Under the pieces are notes generated by a model that saw nothing but the letters and a program-made list of their open reading frames with translations, made no database searches and was not told the DNA's origin. Shown here piece after piece: positions 3,087-20,415 of a stretch of DNA of 36,962 nt (its first letter is position 1; every line of letters begins with the position of its first letter). Where the stretch lies: positions 1-36,962 of the forward strand of contig CAZGIN010000001.1 in NCBI GenBank assembly GCA_964526585.1, read 5' to 3'. The position numbers and the translations under genes were made by a program. This DNA is from an uncultured Methanosarcinales archaeon (GTDB lineage: Archaea > Nanobdellota > Nanobdellia > Woesearchaeales > CAZGIN01).

Positions 3087-5144
3087 TTATTCAGCCACTA
3101 GTGCAGCTTCCACCTCTTTTACTTTTTCGTTCACTTCGCTTATATTAAAGACTTGGTTTCCTCTTGATCCGTCTCTGTAGATAGTCACTCCTTTGCAGCC
3201 TAGCTTCCATGCTAAAAGGAACGCCTCTTTTATGTCTTCTAGTGTAGCATGATTAGAAAAATTTATTGTTTTTGATATTGCGCTGTCTACATGCTCCTGC
3301 AGCGCTGCCTGCGTCTTCACATGATATTCAGGAGAGATCTCGTGCGCTACTGCAAATACTTTTTTCAGCTCTTCTGGTATGCCTTCTATGGATGCTAAGC
3401 TTCCTCTTTCTGCTACTTTTTTCATCAGCTCTTCTGAGTATATTCCTTCTTCTTTTGCTGCTTCTCTGAAATATTCATTTACATACACGAATTTCTGCCC
3501 TCCTAATACGTTCTTGATGTATCCTAGCCCGAAGTTTGGCTCGCATCCTGAGCTTGTCCCTGATATCATGCTTATTGTTCCTGTAGGCCCTATCGATGTT
3601 ACTGTTGAGTTTCTCATGAATATGTTTTTCCTTACATAGATGCTCTTTGCATAGTCTTTGAAAGGCCCTTTTGTTTCTCCTAATTCTTGTGATTTTTCAT
3701 GCGCTTCTTTCTGTATGAATGCCATTATCTTTTTTGCTGTCTTTATGCCTTCTTCTGAATTGTAAGGTATCCTTAGTTGGTAGAGCATGTCTGCATATCC
3801 CATCAGCCCTAGCCCTATCTTTCTCGTTCTTTTGCTCATCTCTTCAAATTTTTTGGATGGGAACTCAGTCAAGTCAAGCGCGCAGTCTAGTAGTTCAACT
3901 CCTGTCCTTACTGTTGTCTTTAGCCTGTCCCAGTTTATTGTCTTGTTCTTCACCATGTTTGCCAGGTTTACTGATCCCATCACTGCTGACTCATAAGGAA
4001 GTAAAGGAAGTTCTCCGCAAGGGTCTGTCGCTTCGATATCTCCCAATCCTTTCAGCGGATGCATATCATTTATCCTGTCTATAAATAGTAATCCTGGCTC
4101 TCCTGTTTCCCATGCCTGCCTTACTATTAGGTCAAATACTTTTTTTGCGCTTGCTTTTCCTGTCTCTCTTCCTGTGAAAGGATCGGTTAATGGATAGTTC
4201 TCTTCTTTCTCCAGCGCTTCCATGAACTCGTTTGTTATCGCAACCGATATGTTGAAGTTTTGCAGCTCATCCAGGTCTTTCTTTGAGGTTATGAACGCTA
4301 CTATGTCAGGATGGTCTGCTCTTAGCACTCCCATGTTTGCTCCTCTTCCGCTTCCCTGCTTTATCGTCTCTGTCTCAAAATCGATAAGTTTCATGAAGCT
4401 TACAGGCCCTGTTGCATTTCCGTTTGTCATCGTTACTTTGCTTCCTTTTGGCCTTATCGATGAGAAATCAAATCCTGTTCCTGCTCCTGCTTTGTGTATG
4501 AGTGAAGCGTGCTTCACTGATTCAAATATCCCTTTTATGCTGTCAGGGATAGGCAGTACATAGCATGACTGCAGCTGTCGGCTTCTTAGGTTTGCATTTG
4601 CTAGTATCCTTCCTGATGGGATAAAATCCAAGGTGTGCATTATGTTGTGGAAATTGTTCTCTGCATCTGTTGCGTGTATCTCCTTGCTTGCCAATGCTCT
4701 TGCCACCCTTTTGAACATCTGTGCAGGAGTTTCTATTATCTTGCCTGTATCATCTCTTGCAAGATATTTTGCTGCTACTATCCTCACTTGGTTTAGGTCT
4801 AGTTTAGAATCATCTATCAGCCCGTCTAGTATCTCTTTTTTCTGCTCCCTTAGTTTTGATCTTTCCTGCCTGTATAGTATGAATGCTTTTGCTGTGGCTG
4901 CATGTCCTTCTTCTATTAAGACTTTCTCTATAAGGTCTTGTATCTCCTCAACTGCAGGTATGCTGTTTGCGTGGAACTTCTCGTTAAGGACGTCAACGAC
5001 CCTATCTGCTACTTCTTCTGCTGTTTTCCTGTCTGAGCCGCCTGCTGCCTGTGCTGATTTGAACACTGCTTGGACTAGCCTTTCATAGTTGAACAGCACT
5101 ATGCTGCCGTCCCTTTTCCTTACTTTGGTTATCTTGTTTTGCAT
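3087..5144 (-). CDS. nrdJ: class II (adenosylcobalamin-type) ribonucleotide reductase paralog with N-terminal ATP-cone and divergent active-site motif
   Basis: 685 aa. ATP-cone (VRKRDGSIVLFNYERLVQAV...), RNR barrel motifs (GGGTGFDFS-like AGAGTGFDFSSIRPKG, SIGPTGTIS, TIYRDGSR). The canonical [21 protein letters not shown] reads DPCGELPLLPYESAVMGSVNL here. Confidence 0.9.
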   Translation of the reverse strand: MQNKITKVRKRDGSIVLFNYERLVQAVFKSAQAAGGSDRKTAEEVADRVVDVLNEKFHANSIPAVEEIQDLIEKVLIEEGHAATAKAFILYRQERSKLREQKKEILDGLIDDSKLDLNQVRIVAAKYLARDDTGKIIETPAQMFKRVARALASKEIHATDAENNFHNIMHTLDFIPSGRILANANLRSRQLQSCYVLPIPDSIKGIFESVKHASLIHKAGAGTGFDFSSIRPKGSKVTMTNGNATGPVSFMKLIDFETETIKQGSGRGANMGVLRADHPDIVAFITSKKDLDELQNFNISVAITNEFMEALEKEENYPLTDPFTGRETGKASAKKVFDLIVRQAWETGEPGLLFIDRINDMHPLKGLGDIEATDPCGELPLLPYESAVMGSVNLANMVKNKTINWDRLKTTVRTGVELLDCALDLTEFPSKKFEEMSKRTRKIGLGLMGYADMLYQLRIPYNSEEGIKTAKKIMAFIQKEAHEKSQELGETKGPFKDYAKSIYVRKNIFMRNSTVTSIGPTGTISMISGTSSGCEPNFGLGYIKNVLGGQKFVYVNEYFREAAKEEGIYSEELMKKVAERGSLASIEGIPEELKKVFAVAHEISPEYHVKTQAALQEHVDSAISKTINFSNHATLEDIKEAFLLAWKLGCKGVTIYRDGSRGNQVFNISEVNEKVKEVEAALVAE

Positions 5145-5818: not shown

Positions 5819-8452
5819 TTAGTCGCCGCAGCTTTTTACCAGTTTGCCGTCTACCAGCTCTACTTTGCAGGCTCCCCCTACGACTTTTACGTCATCTCTC
5901 TTTTTTGGAGCGTCTTCCTCTGCTTCATGTATTATGTAGCTGCTGTCTTTCTGCATCTCGTGGAATGGTGTTGTCAGCCTCCCATCCGGAGTTATCATGA
6001 CTTCATCCCCTTTGATGATCTTCTCTTCTGCTACCTGCATTACGCGGTATTTCTTCTCTTTTGCTGTTGAAAACTTTGTCTGCTGCTGTGCTACGCTCAG
6101 TATAGGAAATCTGCTCCCGTCTCTGTAAATGGTTATCCCTTTAAGTTTTTTTCTCCATGCCTGCAGGTATACGTCGCTTATCACTTCAGGCTCTATGCTT
6201 TCAGGCAGGTTTACTGTGCTTGAGATGCTGTGGTCGATATATCTTTGGCATGTTGATTGAACTTCCACTCTTTTTTCTGGTTTTATGTAGTGTGCTGTCC
6301 TGAAGAAGTGCTCTGGCAGTACTTTCATCAGCTCTTCTGTTGTCTGCGCCTCATTTACTTTTTCCTGAAGTTCATTCTTGTCTATGTATGCCTGTACTGT
6401 CGGATGGAATATCTTGTATACCTTGTTGCCGAAGCTTTCGGATCTTCTTTGGTAATACAGGGAGAATATGGGCTCTATTCCTCCGCTTACTCCTACATAG
6501 TTCTTGTTTCCGTCTTTGTATCCCAGTATGACATTTGATATTGTTCCTGTTGGCGCTATTGACAGTACTGCTACATTCCTCAGTCCGTATTTTTTGATCA
6601 TCTCTTGTGTTTCTTCATCCAATACTTCCTGGAAGAATGGGTTTTGTGCATATACGTCATAGTTCCATATCGGTATCGGCCCTTTTTCTGCTGCCAGCTG
6701 CGCGCTTGCTTGGTATGATACGTTTGCTATGAAGCTCGCTACCTTGTCCATGGTTGCTATTCCTTCTTCTGAGTCATAGCCTATCCCTAGCTGGTTTAGC
6801 ATGTCTGCTATCCCCATATATCCCAGTCCTATCCTTCTTGTCTCTTTTGCTGCTTTTCTTTGTTTTTCTAATGGGTTTAGCGTCTGGTTCCATGATATGA
6901 CATTATCAAGAAATCTTACTATGTCTTGCACAGAGTTTTTTATCATCTTCCAGTCTATCCTTGCGTCTGGTGTATATCCGTTTACTACGCATCTTGACAG
7001 GTTGATGCTTGCCAGGTTGCATGCTCCCCCATCTTCTAATGGAACTTCTCCGCATGGGTTTGTCGATGCTATTGGCTTTCCCAGATAGTTTGATGGAGAG
7101 TATTTTGTCATTGTGCTCCAGAATATCAGTCCTGGCTCTGCTGTCTTATAGTTTCCTTTCACGAATTCGTTCCAGATGTCTTTTGCTTTCACCAGGTTCT
7201 TCACTGCTCCTGCCTGCGCTGAGCTGTAGTACAGCATGAAGTCTCCTGCGTATTTTATCGCAAGGTCATACTTTTCATTCTCCATTGTAAGCACATAGTC
7301 TCCGAACATGTCTCTGTTGTCCTTGTCATCAAGCTGCTCTTTTGCGACTAGCACATTGTGGTTTTCTGTCAGGAACTCGTTCAGCTTCTCTATGTTGTCA
7401 AAGTCAGCATAAAGTTCATATTCTTCAATATCCTTGCTTGGTATGTTGTGAGCATAGTTTGTCTCTTTTGAGTTATGGTACTGGTCCATTATTGCTTTGT
7501 TCTGCTTTTTGTATACAAGTATCCTGTTTGGGCCGTAGCTTTTCTGCTCTTCTACTGCCTGCATGAACTCATCTGATACCTTGACTGATATGTTTGCAAA
7601 CCTGATCTGGGTGTTGTCTCTTACTTGTTTTTCTATCTCTGCAAGGTGCTTGTCATCAAACATTCCTGACATCTTGCATTGGTGTATTATCTGGCTCGTC
7701 ACCCAGTTGTTCTTCTGCTTCACGTTTATGAAATCGAGGATATCAGGGTGCTTTACATCTATCGTCAGCATCAGTGCCCCTCTTCTTCCTGATTGCCCTA
7801 TCAGCCCTGTTGTCAGTGAGTATATCTCCATGAAGCTTACTGCTCCTGTGCTCTTGTCTGCTGCGTTATGCACTACTGAATTTCTTGGCCTTAGGTTTGA
7901 TATGTCTACTCCTATCCCTCCTCCATAAGAATAGGTGCGGGCGCATTCGTACGCTGTCTGGTATATGCTCTCTATGTTGTCTTCCTCTATCAAGGAGACA
8001 AAGCAGTTCGCTAGTGTCTTTAGCCTGTACAGGTCTCCAGCTCCTGCTATCACTCTTCCTCCTGGCAGGAATATTCCTTCATATAATAGCTTGTAGAACT
8101 TTTCTGAGTATATCTTTTGTTTCTCATGGTTTTCTTCGAGTGATGCTATCGCTGCTGCCAGCCTTGTGAACACATCCTCAGGCCTTTTTTCTATGCAGTT
8201 GCCTTCAAAGTTCTTGAGATAGTACTTCCTTTTGTATATGTCATGCACTAGTTCTGATTCTCCGATATAGTTATTCTCAGGGTGCATAGGCAGCTCCCCT
8301 TTTCTCTGAAGCTCTCTAAGGTGCCTATAGAGGGTCTTGTATGCTGCGATCTTTTCAGGGCTTACCAGCTTCAGCAGCTTTGTCTTATGTTCAAACATGC
8401 TTTCAAATTCAGGAGAAATAATCTTCTCTGCCTGCAGTACTTCTTCACTCAT
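5819..8452 (-). CDS. nrdJ: class II ribonucleotide reductase, no ATP-cone, C-terminal Cys pair
   Basis: Motifs LANCFV, NPCGEVPLEDGGACNLASINL, SIAPTGTIS, TIYRDGSR, and C-terminal tail ...GGACKVELVDGKLVKSCGD. The track ORF opens with GTG at 8461. I prefer ATG at 8452 because GAGGTG lies 6 nt upstream of it. Confidence 0.9.
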   Translation of the reverse strand: MSEEVLQAEKIISPEFESMFEHKTKLLKLVSPEKIAAYKTLYRHLRELQRKGELPMHPENNYIGESELVHDIYKRKYYLKNFEGNCIEKRPEDVFTRLAAAIASLEENHEKQKIYSEKFYKLLYEGIFLPGGRVIAGAGDLYRLKTLANCFVSLIEEDNIESIYQTAYECARTYSYGGGIGVDISNLRPRNSVVHNAADKSTGAVSFMEIYSLTTGLIGQSGRRGALMLTIDVKHPDILDFINVKQKNNWVTSQIIHQCKMSGMFDDKHLAEIEKQVRDNTQIRFANISVKVSDEFMQAVEEQKSYGPNRILVYKKQNKAIMDQYHNSKETNYAHNIPSKDIEEYELYADFDNIEKLNEFLTENHNVLVAKEQLDDKDNRDMFGDYVLTMENEKYDLAIKYAGDFMLYYSSAQAGAVKNLVKAKDIWNEFVKGNYKTAEPGLIFWSTMTKYSPSNYLGKPIASTNPCGEVPLEDGGACNLASINLSRCVVNGYTPDARIDWKMIKNSVQDIVRFLDNVISWNQTLNPLEKQRKAAKETRRIGLGYMGIADMLNQLGIGYDSEEGIATMDKVASFIANVSYQASAQLAAEKGPIPIWNYDVYAQNPFFQEVLDEETQEMIKKYGLRNVAVLSIAPTGTISNVILGYKDGNKNYVGVSGGIEPIFSLYYQRRSESFGNKVYKIFHPTVQAYIDKNELQEKVNEAQTTEELMKVLPEHFFRTAHYIKPEKRVEVQSTCQRYIDHSISSTVNLPESIEPEVISDVYLQAWRKKLKGITIYRDGSRFPILSVAQQQTKFSTAKEKKYRVMQVAEEKIIKGDEVMITPDGRLTTPFHEMQKDSSYIIHEAEEDAPKKRDDVKVVGGACKVELVDGKLVKSCGD

Positions 8453-8503
8453 CCACCACACCTCTTGTCCTCTTATTTTGTTTTTGTCTTGTCTATTGAT
8501 TGA

Positions 8504-11998: not shown

Positions 11999-12099
11999 TG
12001 AGCCTGCGAGGATTTGAACCCCGGTCAACCGGTTTCTGCTTTTATAACCGAAGCCGGCCGCACTCTCTGGAATGATTATCCAGGCTATGCTACAGGCCC
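11999..12099 (-). tRNA. tRNA-Arg(UCG), inferred to carry two insertions/introns (anticodon loop 37/38 and D-arm)
   Basis: Reverse complement gives acceptor GGGCCUG/CAGGCUC (one G-U), discriminator A, D-loop AGCCUGGAUA, anticodon stem GCCGG/CCGGU, loop CU-UCG-G...A, T-arm CGGGG-UUCAAAU-CCUCG. It is 101 nt in total, or 74 nt after removing a 14-nt and a 13-nt insert. No encoded CCA. Confidence 0.7.
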
Positions 12100-15619: not shown

Positions 15620-15976
15620 TTAACCTGTTGGCATAACCTTTGCCAATGTAACTAATATTGCTCCTTTTGCTGGCATCCCTTTGTTGTCCGGATCTTTCTT
15701 TACTTGCTCCAGCCATTTTCCATTTTCAAAATATTCAGCTGTTCCTATCATCTTGTATCCTTTCCAGCATTTGTCCCAGACCACCAAGCTCACATTATTG
15801 TTTCTTTTCAAGTTCTCCTTTGTCTGCTTCATATAATTGTCAGTTATCAGTATCTGGTTTTCTGATACTACTTTTACGCATGCGATCCCTATCACATTAG
15901 GCTTATATTCTCCATCTACTGTTGCGAATGCCATGGCATTTTCTTCGATGATCTTCTTTGCTTTTTCATCGATCAT
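15620..15976 (-). CDS. pyridoxamine 5'-phosphate oxidase-like FMN-binding split-barrel protein
   Basis: About 118 aa. ...AMAFATVDGEYKPNVIGIACVKVVSENQILITDNYMKQTKENLKRNNNVSLVVWD is typical of the PNPOx-like family. ATG 15976 is preceded by GAGGTG 5 nt upstream. The track start is GTG 15982. Confidence 0.7.
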   Translation of the reverse strand: MIDEKAKKIIEENAMAFATVDGEYKPNVIGIACVKVVSENQILITDNYMKQTKENLKRNNNVSLVVWDKCWKGYKMIGTAEYFENGKWLEQVKKDPDNKGMPAKGAILVTLAKVMPTG

Positions 15977-16025
15977 TTTCACACCTCATCTTCTGTTCGG
16001 GGCGGGACACTCACGTTTTGTGTGC

Positions 16026-16039
16026 TAGTGGGGAGGTCT
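16026..16039. repeat. 14-nt exact repeat TAGTGGGGAGGTCT, copy 1 (copy 2 at 22808-22821)
   Basis: Read directly. Both copies are preceded by TGTGC and by a looser acact..g..ttgtg similarity of about 30 nt. Confidence 0.8.
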
Positions 16040-16046
16040 CAATGTT

Positions 16047-16111
16047 CATTCCCAGAATGAACATTCCCAAAAATCTCTCGACGACAAAATCTCATTCCCA
16101 GCATATTCCCA
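16047..16111 (+). repeat. ATTCCCA-type motif cluster A (4 copies)
   Basis: cattccca at 16047, 16062 and 16093; tattccca at 16104. Segment 16074-16110 is homologous to 17207-17240 in cluster B. Confidence 0.8.
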
Positions 16112-16120
16112 AAATATTAA

Positions 16121-16777
16121 CTACCTTTTCAGCTTTTCAAAGAAGCACACAACCACATCTATATATTCTACTTTCTTCTTGTGGTGCTCCATTGTTTTCT
16201 TCAGCGGAAACTTGTACTCATTTTTTCTTCTGATATCATATCCAAAATCTTTTGATATCGCTTCAAGGAATCTCATTGTCTCACTTTTGTGGAAGCTGAT
16301 CACATTATCGCTTATACCAAAGGCTTTCTCCAGAAATACCTTGTCAGCATGCTTCTCTTTTGTTCCGAACGGAGGGTTCTCTATTACCAGATCAACCTTT
16401 CCAGCGCTCACTTCACCCGCTAAGTCCTCTACTTTGCAGTTATGGAACTCTGCTTCTCCCATCTCTTCCTTAAGCTCACTTTTCATGTTTTCATAGTATT
16501 TTTTGGCCTCGTTAAGCGCTTCATCGTCTATATCGACGAAATATACCTTGTCTGCTCCCAGCATCAGTGCTCCTATCCCTAATATGCCTGTTCCGCATCC
16601 TAGGTCTGCTACTGTCTTGCCGCTCACCTTTCCTTCCATGTATGCTGTCCATAATACATCTGCTGCTATGTCAGAATTGGTTTGATACTGCTCAACTCTC
16701 ACTTTTGGGGTCTCAAACCCCTTGATTCGTGATAATTCAACCGCTAGAGCCTTTTTTGATGCTATTAGCCTTTCCAT
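16121..16777 (-). CDS. SAM-dependent methyltransferase, METTL5/COG2263-like (predicted RNA m6A methylase)
   Basis: Motif I VADLGCGTGILG and motif IV VIENPPFG. The track start 16789 is TTG. ATG 16777 lies about 28 nt downstream of TATA cttataaatt (16799-16810). Confidence 0.8.
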   Translation of the reverse strand: MERLIASKKALAVELSRIKGFETPKVRVEQYQTNSDIAADVLWTAYMEGKVSGKTVADLGCGTGILGIGALMLGADKVYFVDIDDEALNEAKKYYENMKSELKEEMGEAEFHNCKVEDLAGEVSAGKVDLVIENPPFGTKEKHADKVFLEKAFGISDNVISFHKSETMRFLEAISKDFGYDIRRKNEYKFPLKKTMEHHKKKVEYIDVVVCFFEKLKR

Positions 16778-16889
16778 TTCTCTTCTCAAACCGTCTCTAT
16801 CTTATAAATTCTGCTATTTTAGGGCTCCTAGTCCCATCCTGAGCCATTTTTAGCCATCCTGACAGGCTTTTTTCTTCTATTCCCCTGAT

Positions 16890-16905
16890 ATTAACTCTCA
16901 CTTTT
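16890..16905 (+). repeat. left arm of the 16-bp perfect inverted repeat attaactctcactttt
   Basis: Exact reverse complement of 20200-20215. Confidence 0.9.
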
Positions 16906-17060
16906 GGCCCTTTTTAGGGCCTTTTTCGGCCTTTTTAGCCTCTATTTGGCCTCTCCAGCCCTTTCTTTCCTATTTCCAGCCTTCTTTCAGACCCTCACTT
17001 TTGGCCTAATTTTGGTCTAAATCCTACTTTTTGGTAATTTTTTATCTCCCTTTTTTATCT
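16897..17060 (+). repeat. phased T-tracts alternating with GGCC/AGCC (about 10-12 bp period), including two copies of ctcacttttggcc
   Basis: T4-5 runs at 16902, 16911, 16922, 16932 and 16945, with more following. ctcacttttggcc at 16897-16909 and 16994-17006. Confidence 0.7.
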
Positions 17061-17169
17061 CCTCTTTTGATCTTAAATGATCCTAACCAGATACTGTTGC
17101 CTAACCTTTCTAATGCTTTTTTCAGGCTCCCAAAACCTCTCACTTTTTCTTTGTTCGAGGCGGAATACT

Positions 17170-17453
17170 CATTCCCAACTCATTCCCACACATTCCCAAA
17201 CCTATTTTCTCGTCGACAAAGCTCATTCCCAGCCTATTCCTTGGGAATGTGCCTCAATAACCTTATTCTCCTCGTTATTCTCCTGGTTTTCCTTAGTTTT
17301 TCATTTATCTTTTCATTCCCAATCATTCCCAAAACGTTCCCAGTAACATCCCAAAACGTTCCCAATTTAAGCACCATATTTTTACAAAAAAAGAGGGAAA
17401 TATACAAAATAACATTCCCAAAACGTTCCCAATACATTCCCAGAATATTCCCA
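17170..17453 (+). repeat. ATTCCCA-type motif cluster B (13 direct copies plus 1 inverted), iteron/centromere-like arrays
   Basis: Direct [CT][AG]TTCCCA-type 8-mers start at 17170, 17181, 17191, 17224, 17314, 17324, 17335, 17346, 17357, 17413, 17424, 17435 and 17446 (the 17346 copy, acatccca, is degenerate). An inverted copy is at 17242-17249. Spacing within sub-arrays is 10-11 bp. Confidence 0.85.
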
Positions 17454-17466
17454 AATTTGCACAAAG

Positions 17467-17474
17467 TTTAAATA
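17467..17474 (+). promoter_or_regulatory. TATA box for the ORF starting at 17499
   Basis: tttaaata centred about 28 nt upstream of ATG 17499, directly after the last motif array. Confidence 0.45.
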
Positions 17475-17498
17475 GTTGCTGTGCTTTGGAATGTTAAA

Positions 17499-18353
17499 AT
17501 GTTAGGATTGTTCAAGGATTCAGCAAAGGAAGTCCATCAGAGCCTGTCAAGGCTCGATGCAAGGCTGCAAAAAGCATTTACAACAGTGCGAAGTGATATG
17601 CAAAATCTTTCAGCCTGGATCAGCTATCTGCATCAAAAGATGCAGGCTCAGGATGCACAGTTGCAGCAGGCTTTGCAGGAATCAAGAAATGCATCCACAA
17701 CAGCAAGAAACAATCCTGGTGGCCAAAAAGTGAGCCCTGAATTCATCCAGGCTCAGGTTAGTGCTTCCCCCCAGATGCATTTTCTGCAGAACTCATTGAG
17801 CCATCTGCAGCTGAGGATGAGCGAATTGGCCGACTCGAAAGGGGTTTCCCCTCAGGATTTTCATGCTTTGAGCTCAAAAGTGAGTGATTTGAGGGAGAAG
17901 TTCCATGATTTGGGCTCCCGGGTGAGCCGTATTGACAGCATTGAACATGAGATTGACCATAAGATTGGCCAAAATATGGCTGTTTTTGAGCAAAAAGTGA
18001 GTTCAAGGCTGGATTCTGTTGAGCAAAAAGTAGGAGATGTGTGGCAAAGGCTTGATGATCTTGCGAAAAAACCTTCTGTGAAGGAGACAAGACAGCAGTT
18101 CAAGGAGAAGATAATGAAGAAGATAACAAGGCACTCTAAGGAGTATATCCGCAACATGATTTTGTCTTTGATTAAAAAATACGAGCGGGTTTCAGCCCTT
18201 AATTTGAGGGAGATTATAGTCGAGGAGCAGGCTTTGTGTTCAAAAAGTTCTTTCTATCGTTTCCTTGAAGAGCTTGAAAAATCTGATGAGATCGAGTCTT
18301 TTTCAGAGGGAAAAGAAAAGTTTTTTGTCTACAAGGTGGTGAGAGAGGTGTAA
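17499..18353 (+). CDS. coiled-coil protein with C-terminal winged-helix-like domain
   Basis: About 284 aa from ATG 17499 (track start is GTG 17481). Q/S-rich heptad-like N-terminal two-thirds with repeated (Q/S)KVS units. The C-terminus ...ILSLIKKYERVSALNLREIIVEEQALCSKSSFYRFLEELEKSDEIESF looks like a wHTH. Confidence 0.6.
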   Translation: MLGLFKDSAKEVHQSLSRLDARLQKAFTTVRSDMQNLSAWISYLHQKMQAQDAQLQQALQESRNASTTARNNPGGQKVSPEFIQAQVSASPQMHFLQNSLSHLQLRMSELADSKGVSPQDFHALSSKVSDLREKFHDLGSRVSRIDSIEHEIDHKIGQNMAVFEQKVSSRLDSVEQKVGDVWQRLDDLAKKPSVKETRQQFKEKIMKKITRHSKEYIRNMILSLIKKYERVSALNLREIIVEEQALCSKSSFYRFLEELEKSDEIESFSEGKEKFFVYKVVREV

Positions 18354-18454: not shown

Positions 18455-19006
18455 ATGGTGTTTGATAACATTAAGAGAGCTCTATCTCACGACGACGTTA
18501 AGGAGCTCGAGTCAAGATTCAAGAGATCTATCAACCAGTTTAAGGAAGAGTTTGAGGATCATCTTGATGCTATTAACCAGAATACCAATGAGATACAGTC
18601 TAACTATGAATTCCTTTGCAATCTCGATTCCAAGATCAACAAGCTTAACGAGAGGATAGACGAGCTTTTCATGATGTTTAAGCATCAGCATGAGGAGCCT
18701 TCTCCTAGCTTTGAGATCCATGCTCTTACTAAGCGTGAAAAAGAAGTGTTTATGGCATTATACGCTTTAGAAGAAGAGCTTGATAAGGTATCATATCTTG
18801 ATCTTGCCAGGCGTTTAGGTATGACTGTTGAGCTTGTCCAGTCTTACATATCCAATCTCGTCGACAAAGGCATCCCTCTTCTTAAGAGGTACATCAACAA
18901 CAACGCTTATATCAGGATCGATCCTGCTTTCAAGTCTGTCCAGGCTAAGAAGAATTTCTTGGAGATGAACGAGCAGATTTCTGAGAAAGTCATATCCTAC
19001 GAATAG
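18455..19006 (+). CDS. coiled-coil protein with C-terminal HTH (LuxR/sigma-70 region 4-like)
   Basis: 183 aa. AGGTGG lies 9 nt upstream of the ATG. N-terminal helical half. The C-terminal LTKREKEVFMALYALEEELDKVSYLDLARRLGMTVELVQSYISNLVDKG resembles an HTH. Confidence 0.65.
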   Translation: MVFDNIKRALSHDDVKELESRFKRSINQFKEEFEDHLDAINQNTNEIQSNYEFLCNLDSKINKLNERIDELFMMFKHQHEEPSPSFEIHALTKREKEVFMALYALEEELDKVSYLDLARRLGMTVELVQSYISNLVDKGIPLLKRYINNNAYIRIDPAFKSVQAKKNFLEMNEQISEKVISYE

Positions 19007-19075
19007 TGTCCTGATTAAAACATTTAGGCGTTAATTGCATTTTTTAGTCGAGAATCAGCAAATTATTTATACTCA

Positions 19076-19123
19076 TTCCGATAAGGCAGCATATGCATTC
19101 CGGGAAGGGAGTGCTTATCGGAA
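19076..19123 (+). promoter_or_regulatory. 10-bp perfect inverted repeat ttccgataag / cttatcggaa in the recombinase leader
   Basis: Arms at 19076-19085 and 19114-19123, with a 28-nt spacer, ending 10 nt before ATG 19133. Two cattccg motifs (19074, 19096) lie in or near it. Confidence 0.45.
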
Positions 19124-19132
19124 GGGCTAAAG

Positions 19133-19951
19133 ATGCAGGATTTTGAGTTTTCAGGGCCTGAAAGGCGAAAGTCGACCAAAGCAGCGATCTACATTCGAGT
19201 CTCCACCGAAGAACAGGCCAAAGAAGGCATATCCATGAAAGCTCAGGAAGAGCGCTGCAGGGCTTTTTGCATCGCCCGAGGTTGGGATGTCTTCAAGATC
19301 TACAAAGATCCTGGTTTTTCTGCAAAGAATCTTTCAAGGCCTGCTATGAAGCGCGTTCTTCAGGATGCTAAGGACAAGAAATTTAGAGTGCTGGTTGTCT
19401 ACAAGTTTGACAGGTTTTCAAGAAACCTTAAGGACCTTCTTTTCACTTTGGAGGATCTTAGGAAGCTTGCGATCAACTTCACTTCAGTTACTGAGCAGAT
19501 CGATACCACAACTGCTATGGGCAAGGCTTTCTTCAGGATAATAGGCGTTTTTGCTGAGCTTGAGCGTGATGTGCTAAAAGAGCGTGTCGATATGGCTTTT
19601 GCTAAGAAGATCATGTCCGGAGAGGCTCTTAACAGAGCTCCTTTTGGTTATGCTTATGATAAGGGCAGATTAGTTCCAGATGTCGAAAAAGCTCCTCTTG
19701 TGCAGCAGATTTTTGAGATGAAAGCTGACGGCATCCATTACAAAGACATCGCTCAGAATGCAAATTTGGCTGTCTCATCGCTCTTTGATATGCTTCGTAA
19801 TCCGGTCTATCTTGGCAAGATAAAATATCGAGGCAGGCTTTACAATGGTTTGCACAAAGCGATCATCTCTGAGGATCTGTTCAAGAAGGTCAATCCCCAG
19901 TTTGAGATTCCCGACGATATCGGCTCTTTTTCTGCCAAAGGCCAGAAGTAA
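19133..19951 (+). CDS. serine recombinase (resolvase catalytic domain plus recombinase domain; short form)
   Basis: 272 aa. AAIYIRVSTEEQ carries the catalytic Ser. Also VVYKFDRFSRN and GVFAELERD. Then RAPFGYAYDKGRLVPDVEKAPLVQQIFEM...LRNPVYLGKIKY is typical of the 'recombinase' domain of large serine recombinases. No zinc-ribbon or coiled-coil tail. Confidence 0.9.
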   Translation: MQDFEFSGPERRKSTKAAIYIRVSTEEQAKEGISMKAQEERCRAFCIARGWDVFKIYKDPGFSAKNLSRPAMKRVLQDAKDKKFRVLVVYKFDRFSRNLKDLLFTLEDLRKLAINFTSVTEQIDTTTAMGKAFFRIIGVFAELERDVLKERVDMAFAKKIMSGEALNRAPFGYAYDKGRLVPDVEKAPLVQQIFEMKADGIHYKDIAQNANLAVSSLFDMLRNPVYLGKIKYRGRLYNGLHKAIISEDLFKKVNPQFEIPDDIGSFSAKGQK

Positions 19952-20034: not shown

Positions 20035-20046
20035 TAACTCTCACTT
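20035..20046 (+). repeat. third copy of the repeat core taactctcactt (direct relative to 16892-16903)
   Basis: 12-nt exact match. Inverted relative to 20202-20213. Confidence 0.8.
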
Positions 20047-20199
20047 ATCAAAATATTTCAAAATCTTCTATATAGAAAATAATATTATAAAATATACTTA
20101 ATATAATATATAAGACAAAATAACTATTATACTATACAATAAACTAGCTACTTTAAAATATATATTAAACTATCTACAAATACCAAATTTTTTTTACTG
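20047..20199. other. extreme AT tract (candidate DNA unwinding element)
   Basis: About 153 bp with roughly 15% G+C by hand count, flanked by inverted 12-mers. No ORF. Confidence 0.4.
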
Positions 20200-20215
20200 A
20201 AAAGTGAGAGTTAAT
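20200..20215 (-). repeat. right arm of the 16-bp perfect inverted repeat (aaaagtgagagttaat)
   Basis: Exact reverse complement of 16890-16905. Confidence 0.9.
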
Positions 20216-20415
20216 TTTTACAGCCCTCAAAAAGCGCAGAATTGCACAAAAAGTGTACAAAAAGCTTCATTTCAGCAGATCTTGTAGAAATATGTGAACT
20301 CCCAATTGGGCACTATGTAATTCACCCCCCGAAAGTGAGTGTAAATGCTTTTCTCTCGTCGACATCCAAAAAAATTCGAATATTTTATTAATTGTTAAAT
20401 TTAGGATACTGAAAA

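Follow-up and report, generated by a model that had tools for sequence, protein, structure and literature searches.

A 36,962-bp stretch of the archaeal contig CAZGIN010000001.1 (hereafter the window) carries arrays of a short repeat, [C/T]A[T/G]TCCCA, in front of a two-gene operon for a pair of predicted coiled-coil winged helix-turn-helix (wHTH) proteins, named ccwHTH1 and ccwHTH2. The repeats recur every 11 bp, stand in register with the TATA box of ccwHTH1 and are conserved at the same chromosomal locus across the Woesearchaeota compared here, frequently close to a XerA recombinase gene and a dif-like site. What is new is a phased, putative operator/assembly array for a lineage-specific coiled-coil winged-helix pair that is linked to Xer/dif. 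On balance, the arrays appear to be a platform for cooperative wHTH binding through which the operon would control its own promoter, probably within a larger complex at the chromosome-dimer-resolution locus.

Phased TCCCA arrays at a conserved promoter

Eighteen ATTCCCA-type copies had been listed in an initial annotation of the window, and sequence reading and a pattern search recovered all of them (Table 1). Their helical register was borne out as well: sub-arrays of 3 (17170-17198), 5 (17314-17364) and 4 (17413-17453) sites are spaced at 10-11 bp, and Tandem Repeats Finder delimits period-11 arrays at 17167-17199, 17326-17365 and 17411-17455. Against expectations and shuffles computed on the window, ATTCCCA is found 19 times (4.98 expected; reached in 0 of 100 shuffles) and YRTTCCCA 20 times (3.69 expected; top shuffle value 9), with 17 of the 20 YRTTCCCA copies packed into the 1.4 kb at 16047-17453. 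Two TCCCA sites absent from the earlier list are TAGTCCCA (Table 1) and GGCTCCCA at 17125-17132. The promoter-linked module of the window comprises 17314-17453. The intergenic region that holds the arrays is 690 bp long and has a pyrimidine-rich plus strand; the arrays lie in DNA of ~40% G+C, and the closest strongly AT-rich stretch is 2.6 kb off.

In a scan of one genome per species 194 relatives were found, and 80 loci were compared. These were chosen via a protein pattern and cover ~10 kb on each side, giving 1.31 Mb together with the window; open reading frame (ORF) calls in the relatives are crude. Some record titles read 'Methanosarcinales', which is at odds with the conserved Woesearchaeota-type gene order, and such labels are treated as unreliable; judged by gene order, the window is part of a Woesearchaeota (DPANN) chromosome and its locus is syntenic with the others. 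The shared order has the UPPS, hyp177, (AMMECR1), Rpo11 and methyltransferase genes on one strand and, across a gap of 0.25-1.4 kb, ccwHTH1 and ccwHTH2 on the opposite one. A tblastn search places ccwHTH2 next to ccwHTH1 in 79 of the 80 loci; it also finds Rpo11 in 75, hyp177 in 70, the methyltransferase in 59, UPPS in 51 and a tyrosine recombinase in 45-46, while ORF clustering places PAC2 in 52. Synteny with Rpo11, UPPS, ribosomal proteins and PAC2 is seen on contigs of up to 585 kb.

Within the sequence covered, the motif belongs to this locus. The densest 300-bp cluster of coding-strand TCCCA lies directly upstream of ccwHTH1 in ~72 of the 80 loci. Arrays, defined as at least three sites at 10-12 bp spacing, number 102 in the 1.31 Mb; all except one are within 1 kb upstream of ccwHTH1 (101/102), and 20 shuffles gave none. 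An even dispersal of the motif, which the initial annotation had named as an outcome that would speak against its proposal, is not what is observed within the 1.31 Mb: 101 of the 102 arrays occupy one locus and the motif is tied to the wHTH gene in ~70 of the 80 loci. The consensus from 758 sites is [A/T][C/T]A[T/G]TCCCA. Successive sites are separated by a sharp modal distance of 11 bp (277 intervals), with harmonics at 22, 33-34, 44-45 and 55 bp, and because the 11-bp period and its phase are kept across gaps of 33, 44 and 55 bp, the sites all lie on one side of the helix. When sites are located by their TCCCA core, the flanks hold A in 74% at -2 and T or G in 90% at -1. A recurrent core with constrained flanks in distant species argues for base-specific recognition rather than for DNA shape alone. 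Together, the 11-bp period, phasing in multiples of 11, mostly direct orientation and register with the TATA box mark the arrays as a property of double-helical DNA, not of RNA or protein.

Aligned on the start codon, the loci share an architecture of a distal array with 4-5 sites, a ~40-bp spacer, a proximal array with ~4 sites, 12-13 nt, a B recognition element (BRE) with TATA box, and a leaderless ATG. Each locus has 9-22 sites. Two or more arrays are present in 29 of 81 loci by a strict exact-core criterion, and visibly in more otherwise. The 13-nt gap that had been noted in the window is correct, since 17453 is the final base of the last copy and 17467 the first base of the TATA box TTTAAATA. 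Among 49 scorable loci, the last site is 12-13 nt from the TATA box in 26 and the ATG is 22-26 nt from the end of the TATA box in 44; an exact TGGGA follows the TATA box after 1-3 nt in 8 of the 49. The short distance from TATA box to ATG indicates a leaderless ccwHTH1 mRNA. A proximal array at a constant distance of 12-13 nt from the TATA box speaks in the first place for promoter control, and sites fixed relative to the BRE/TATA of the regulator's own gene are what characterizes an autoregulatory operator.

Module A of the window, in the spacer between the 3' end of the methyltransferase gene and a PNPOx-like gene, has 81% mean column identity with module B and the same order of site-site-box-site; by this likeness it is a partial duplicate of module B. 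The PNPOx-like gene itself (15620-16120 zone) lies between Rpo11 and the methyltransferase gene and is accompanied by module A; no PNPOx homologue occurs at the locus in any of the 80 relatives. The box of the modules is a palindrome, TTATCGnCGATAA (TCTCGTCGACA in the window), and appears in the window at 16076-16088, 17208-17220 and 20354-20366, the last in the right intergenic region. Across loci this palindrome is often found in the spacer between the arrays; it is present in strict form in 26 of 81 loci and in degenerate forms in more; it is possibly the site of a dimeric protein, for which ccwHTH2 would be a candidate. The G-type site TAGTCCCA, a form common in relatives, is among the most enriched upstream 8-mers across loci. 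G-type sites are enriched in the clade of proteins with a GKHT wing (vs GKEK), and in the extreme GKHT members (L068, L076, L082) the sites are mostly inverted or palindromic. In three rearranged loci (L053, L074, L079), ccwHTH1 alone is inverted and divergent from ccwHTH2, with xerA still adjoining; a dense AGTCYYA/TRRGACT cluster is kept there between the 3' end of ccwHTH1 and the methyltransferase gene. The grammar of this cluster is one of 6-bp tandem GGACT/GAGACT units.

Beyond the chosen loci, a metagenome scan for four TCCCA cores at exact 11-bp spacing gave at least 120 matches; of the 120 listed, 4 are ccwHTH loci, and the others listed and inspected are mostly unrelated perfect tandem repeats without bearing on the regulon question. 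A like scan of viral contigs listed, among its matches, a bacteriophage contig from IMG/VR (L261, 6540-6610) that has an unrelated AGTCCCA array of 11-bp period between ArpU-like regulator and terminase genes, which implies that similar phased arrays arise independently for other DNA-binding proteins. The array intergenic region of the window has further tandem repeats of 10-13 bp, namely CCTTTTTAGGG, TTTTTATCTCC and TTATTCTCCTCG at 16909-16954, 17038-17073 and 17263-17288, whose phased T/A-tracts could bend the DNA.

Table 1. Features of the array locus and its flanks, in window coordinates
Feature	Position	Strand	Remarks
Module A, 4 direct sites	16047-54, 16062-69, 16093-100, 16104-111	+	Around box TCTCGACGACAAA (16076-16088)
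Isolated site TAGTCCCA, G-type variant	16829-16836	+	~20 nt past the TATA-like box of the methyltransferase gene
Distal intergenic part	16890-17147	+	Three copies of the 13-mer (16893-16907, 16990-17004, 17137-17147); phased GGCC/T-tract repeats (16909-16954)
Module B	17170-17249	+	Sites from 17170, 17181, 17191; box TCTCGTCGACAAA (17208-17220); direct site 17224-17231; inverted site 17242-17249, the sole inverted copy in the earlier list
Distal promoter array, 5 sites	17314-17364	+	Sites from 17314, 17324, 17335, 17357; degenerate fourth site ACATCCCA (17346-17353), which brings the copies to eighteen; spacing 10/11/11/11 bp
Proximal promoter array, 4 sites	17413-17453	+	Sites from 17413, 17424, 17435, 17446; exact 11-bp spacing; ends 13 nt short of TATA
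Core promoter, BRE-like purine stretch and TATA box TTTAAATA	17461-17474	+	TATA box 17467-17474; ATG 24 nt past TATA
Near-consensus inverted site TTTGGAATGTTA	17485-17496	-	Between TATA box and start codon
ccwHTH1	17499-18353	+	Long coiled-coil helices, then C-terminal winged helix; AlphaFold mean pLDDT 82.8
ccwHTH2	18455-19006	+	One long N-terminal helix, then MarR/GerE-like winged helix; AlphaFold mean pLDDT 90.1
Putative recombination site	19065-19134	+	Conserved promoter and imperfect inverted repeat ATTCCRATAAGG ... TTCCnnnAAGGGA / TAnnGGAA; aligns across four serine-recombinase species
Short serine recombinase, Resolvase and Recombinase domains, 272 aa	19133-19951	+	In the slot of xerA/dif-like site of most relatives
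Right intergenic region	20035-20215		13-mer direct (20035-20050) and inverted (20198-20215) around 147 bp of 13% G+C

The cassette proteins, the recombinase and a second motif

The guess that the genes downstream of the arrays encode a coiled coil with a C-terminal winged helix is supported by AlphaFold models of both proteins. Throughout the family, the recognition-helix region of ccwHTH1 (CSKSSFYR) hardly varies, in parallel with the invariant TCCCA core, which makes ccwHTH1 the prime candidate for the binder. Its coiled-coil rod varies between 186 and 338 aa and is conserved at both ends. The Foldseek and PDB sequence matches listed for the two proteins are generic winged helices only (such as Hop2, PadR, ArsR, Fur, MarR and GerE), and Pfam, NCBIfam, PHROGs and PADLOC have no fitting family for either. 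All homologues of ccwHTH1 are uncharacterised, and the named ones are from Woesearchaeota; a literature search returned nothing on the ccwHTH protein family or the TCCCA motif, and a search for contigs that encode the window's own proteins gave none on record.

To the left of the arrays lies a small-domain methyltransferase gene (16121-16789, minus strand); to the right the plus-strand ccwHTH1-ccwHTH2 operon is followed by the serine recombinase gene. Outside this locus the window is housekeeping chromosome, with genes for ribonucleotide reductases, thymidylate synthase, FtsZ, ribosomal protein L11, Rpo11, UPP and GGPP synthases and a PAC2-family (proteasome assembly chaperone-like) protein. 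Of the ribonucleotide reductase genes, two for the large subunit stand in tandem (3087-5144 and 5819-8461). In the 880-aa copy the barrel-domain match is split in two, suggestive of an insertion that may be an intein. Rfam matches a tRNA over 101 nt at 11999-12099 on the minus strand (40.2 bits), with no call by ARAGORN; this may be an intron-containing archaeal tRNA.

The tyrosine recombinase of the relatives qualifies as XerA by the NCBIfam equivalog cut-off (246 and 238 bits vs 220), and its gene lies ~0.5-1 kb downstream of the cassette in 45-46 of the 80 loci. Of the loci with at least 4 kb of downstream sequence, 36 of 57 have a recombinase there. Of the 46 loci with xerA, 34 also contain a dif-like 28-mer, such as AAGTCGCATAATGTATATTATACGACAT, in which a 6-bp spacer separates two inverted arms of 11 bp; no shuffled locus reaches such a score. 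These sites are mostly 29-600 nt upstream of xerA, from which it follows that dif and xerA are neighbours in these archaea, and xerA, ccwHTH2 and ccwHTH1 remain linked in the three rearranged loci. The consensus of the dif-like sites is approximately AGTTCGTATAA-N6-TTATACGAACT (L009-L079, +1.3 to +3.5 kb from ccwHTH1), with examples at +1714 in L078, +2585 in L071 and +1666 in L038. The L078 site has a 17-nt core, CGCATAATGTATATTAT, in common with E. coli dif. The link of the cassette to xerA and a dif-like site implies that a centromere-like role, if there is any, concerns the chromosome-dimer-resolution locus and not plasmid partition or replication initiation.

A Xer/dif locus, with a XerA-type enzyme and a 28-bp site, is a feature of relatives only; the window has no dif-like site, and a serine recombinase with its own conserved site is there instead. 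Serine and tyrosine recombinases are mutually exclusive across loci, and the four species with the serine enzyme (the window, L020, L052, L066) are without xerA. The inverted repeat of the serine-recombinase site has the fuller form TTTATATACTC-ATTCCRATAAGG ... TTCCnnnAAGGGA/TAnnGGAA. L020 and L052 retain a dif-like remnant. The serine recombinase looks like a non-orthologous replacement of the dimer-resolution module.

A second conserved element, the 13-mer AAC[T/C]CTCACTTTT, has 2-11 direct copies in the distal left intergenic region. A matrix scan of the window and L008-L087 gave 493 matches vs 81 in shuffles. Its copies 2-6 kb to the right of ccwHTH1 are mostly on the opposite strand, so that the polarity flips across the cassette; in the window, the 16 nt at 16890-16905 recur without mismatch as an inverted repeat at 20200-20215, and the pair brackets the cassette. 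A KOPS-like motif with genome-wide polarity was considered and rejected, since matches outside the two flanking intergenic regions are at about shuffle level. Two in-gene matches at 16279 and 16697 encode KSE and KVR and are probably coincidental. The AT-rich stretch of the right intergenic region has 5-25% G+C (20051-20197 in the window), the region is often placed between convergent genes, and an inverted 13-mer follows within 250 bp after this stretch in 36 of 52 loci. Another motif, T[AT]GGCAC[CT]A, lies between TATA and ATG of the hyp177 promoter (L008-L087, about -1.5 to -2.9 kb). In the right intergenic region (+2.2 to +6 kb) it recurs by a TATA-like box, at a distance of 16-300 nt from the inverted 13-mer; the window variant is GGGCACTATG at 20309-20319. 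This motif may be an operator or promoter element common to several promoters of the locus, and with the 13-mer it may mark the ends of small transcription units. Four-fold-site skew changes between the ~10 kb flanks by +0.025 for GC (sd 0.014) and -0.026 for AT (sd 0.013). A replication fork trap or terminus, prompted by dif, was rejected, as the weak skew signal has the opposite sign. Rfam had no match in the intergenic regions.

Weighing the possible functions

From their position and conservation we infer that the [C/T]A[T/G]TCCCA repeats are binding sites of the downstream ccwHTH1, possibly with its partner ccwHTH2. Coiled-coil oligomers would bind the sites cooperatively on the same helix face and coat ~50 bp per sub-array; the complex, abutting the BRE/TATA, would control the promoter of the ccwHTH1-ccwHTH2 operon itself, to which some relatives add an inverted site past the TATA box. 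The same nucleoprotein complex would probably also mark or organize the chromosome-dimer-resolution locus. Several points weigh against this interpretation. The basis for assigning the sites to ccwHTH1, and not to ccwHTH2 or some protein encoded elsewhere, is that gene and sites adjoin and are conserved in parallel. Covariation of wing and sites between clades fits co-evolution but is confounded by phylogeny. The 9-22 sites of a locus are far more than simple autoregulation needs. The site cluster of L053, L074 and L079 is at the 3' side of the inverted ccwHTH1, away from its promoter, and module A of the window stands inside an operon spacer, which together indicate that promoter control is probably not the whole function. 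The Xer link is frequent, not universal, with no recombinase in 21 of the 57 loci that have enough downstream sequence. The locus specificity of the arrays is known from the ~10 kb on each side of each locus.

The initial annotation had seen in the arrays either plasmid iterons or a ParR/parC-type centromere. What stands of this is that the repeats are real, non-random and on the same face, and that two sub-arrays have a centromere-like layout; what falls is plasmid status, a Rep protein, a partition NTPase and membership in either family. A plasmid or other mobile replicon is rejected by the conserved chromosomal synteny, with methyltransferase, Rpo11, hyp177 and UPPS genes on one side and PAC2 on the other. 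The three cassette proteins contain no Rep initiator by Pfam, NCBIfam and PHROGs; neighbourhood clustering and annotation found no partition NTPase (ParA/ParM/TubZ), Rep or Orc1/Cdc6 in the operon or within ~10 kb in the 80 loci; and the PDB sequence and fold matches shown include no ParR or TubR homologue, generic winged helices being the only hits. Plasmid iterons are repeats of 17-22 bp, about two helical turns apart, beside an AT-rich DNA unwinding element (DUE) and a rep gene. The arrays resemble them in being helically phased direct repeats next to a winged-helix gene, with a proposed autoregulation through the repeats, but the unit is 11 bp, the region has ~40% G+C, and neither an AT-rich DUE nor a rep gene adjoins.

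The closest counterparts in working appear to be the centromere-operators parC/ParR and tubC/TubR and the multi-site autoregulatory operators of archaea, and the closest in context the TrmBL2/dif boundary. parC/ParR (R1, pSK41) and tubC/TubR (pBtoxis) are plasmid or phage systems whose known examples always have ParM or TubZ in the operon, and in R1 parC two sets of five 11-bp repeats flank the promoter. As in these systems, two clusters of direct repeats of about one turn (5 + 4 sites at 10-11 bp in the window) lie at the promoter of the operon for the binding protein, directly upstream of ccwHTH1; parC and tubC are bound cooperatively on one face and serve as operator and assembly site, and TubR is a winged helix, a likeness in which binding by ccwHTH1 is predicted. 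Unlike them, the Woesearchaeota locus is chromosomal, lacks an NTPase, encodes long coiled coils and has no detectable homology, and both of its arrays are upstream of the promoter, whereas those of R1 flank it. Among archaeal regulators, Ss-LrpB binds three regularly spaced sites in its own control region, and such operators hold 1-3 palindromic sites. They share with the present locus a regulator gene directly downstream of regular sites that abut the BRE/TATA, and cooperative binding, which is proposed here; they differ from its 9-22 mostly direct, half-site-like repeats in at least two arrays and from its clusters that are kept when the gene is inverted. MatP/matS and RacA/ram likewise combine a DNA-binding domain and coiled coil with repeated sites in one region tied to segregation or the terminus. 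Both matS and ram are palindromic sites dispersed across hundreds of kilobases, unlike tandem phased arrays within <1 kb, and there is no homology to MatP or RacA. TrmBL2 of Thermococcus kodakarensis, described as a former of stiff nucleoprotein filaments, acts in an archaeon on non-coding DNA around dif, as is proposed for the complex here (PMC11840125). TrmBL2 is an abundant nucleoid protein with many AT-rich sites, as opposed to a dedicated gene pair with an 8-bp site in phased arrays and a promoter register, and no TrmB homology of ccwHTH1 or ccwHTH2 was detected with Pfam or Foldseek.

That last comparison leads to an interpretation that overlaps with promoter autoregulation and differs from it in the role that comes first. 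Beside dif/xerA, a stiff ccwHTH filament could be above all a chromosome landmark or roadblock that organizes the region, with promoter control secondary; variants include, for example, SMC stalling, tethering of the dif region to the division site, and directional dimer resolution. A landmark specific to Woesearchaeales, in which a sequence-specific filament would serve as a roadblock for SMC or as a tether coupling dimer resolution to FtsZ-based division, is possible though doubtful, as is the primacy of a landmark role in general, to which we give a minority share of belief. The 9-22 sites in a two-array layout are centromere-like, the clusters persist where ccwHTH1 is inverted away, the cassette shows linkage to xerA and a dif-like site and, in four genomes, to a serine recombinase that has a site of its own at that position, and rods of 186-338 aa with conserved ends are as in tethering proteins. 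In T. kodakarensis, non-coding DNA around dif, and not dif/XerA, is necessary and sufficient for an SMC-dependent domain boundary, with filament-forming TrmBL2 as the roadblock, so that such a role exists in archaea; in haloarchaea, dif is upstream of the xerA operon (PMC11840125). Neither a partition NTPase nor an SMC gene is present in the neighbourhood, however, 1.5-2.5 kb separate the arrays from the dif-like site, a recombinase is missing nearby in 21 of the 57 loci, and the fixed TATA register most simply means transcription control.

The remaining proposals fare worse. An origin of replication, with TCCCA arrays as iteron-like sites of a non-Orc1 origin-binding protein and the 13-mer AACTCTCACTTTT as an element resembling the origin recognition box (ORB) at an AT-rich unwinding element, is unlikely. 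It would account for the large conserved non-coding regions, the strand switch of the 13-mer (left copies on the plus strand, nearly all right copies on the minus), the inverted 13-mer pair around AT-rich DNA in the window, the right intergenic location, in 38 of 52 loci, of the AT-richest 150-bp segment found anywhere in the ~20 kb, and the origin-type sign of the skew change. An inverted ORB pair around a DUE is indeed the minimal archaeal oriC pattern, and some oriCs lack an adjacent initiator gene (bioRxiv 10.64898/2026.08.15.744077). Against this, the full inverted pair around the AT-rich stretch is present in only 7 of 52 loci, the skew signal is only ~2 sd, the genes of the right flank are mostly on the minus strand, an orientation that is not origin-like, and some loci have 250-330 bp between the flanking genes, barely above array size. 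No Orc1/Cdc6 was found among the called ORFs, Walker A ORFs having been checked, within ~10 kb in the 80 loci, although ORC1/Cdc6 is encoded by 206 of 208 complete Nanobdellota genomes (bioRxiv 10.64898/2026.05.13.725050); the earlier statement that the window has no adjacent orc1/cdc6 gene agrees with its Pfam-annotated ORFs, among which neither an orc1/cdc6 nor a whiP initiator gene appears. The TCCCA arrays also do not resemble ORBs, as had been stated, being direct repeats that are fixed to a promoter and flank no AT-rich region. Another reading makes the 13-mer and the TAGGCAC motif components of small transcription units, and the right AT-rich region is either origin-like, with the ORB/DUE/ORB arrangement of the 7 loci, or such a unit. 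An effect of intrinsic DNA shape, in which phased TCCCAAAA units would tune the promoter through DNA curvature or stiffness or through the placement of archaeal histones, with no dedicated sequence-specific protein, is quite improbable: the 11-bp period, the A-rich stretch that often follows the core, other phased T/A-tract repeats nearby and the influence of A-tract structure on SMC stalling in Thermococcus (PMC11840125) are in its favour, but sites located by their core keep their flank preferences in distant species where shape alone tolerates many sequences, the flanking A-rich part is the variable part, and inverted copies and palindromic variants behave like protein half-sites. The arrays as arm-type or accessory sites of the neighbouring site-specific recombinase have very little to recommend them beyond the frequent presence of that gene downstream. 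Lambda Int, cer/psi and res are known cases of accessory arrays; here the same array motif occurs with XerA, with the serine enzyme and with no recombinase, each recombinase has its own distinct site by its gene, and two genes lie between the arrays and that site. A repeat that acts as coding sequence (ORF 17031-17471) or through repeated transcript motifs, such as a protein sponge, is extremely improbable. The arrays are covered by an ORF of 146 aa on a strongly pyrimidine-rich plus strand, but such a strand is poor in stop codons and has long ORFs by chance; the 11-nt period shifts the frame at every repeat and thereby excludes a coding repeat, the phasing by multiples of 11 and a fixed TATA distance are properties of DNA, and Rfam has no match.

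Implications for archaeal chromosome biology

Two questions are at stake here: the control of Xer recombination in space and time in archaea, where FtsK is absent, and the organization and segregation of the small chromosomes of DPANN archaea. The locus described here offers a concrete, sequence-conserved system in which an 8-bp site in phased arrays is combined with two small DNA-binding proteins and with a dif-like site and xerA, or with a serine recombinase that displaces them. If the landmark role is true, the system would be an archaeal counterpart of FtsK/KOPS, MatP/matS or TrmBL2 at dif, built from an unrelated protein family and a parC-like array. Although the organisms are uncultured, its parts are all accessible to work in vitro. 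At a minimum, the locus would yield a new family of archaeal regulators together with its probable operator.

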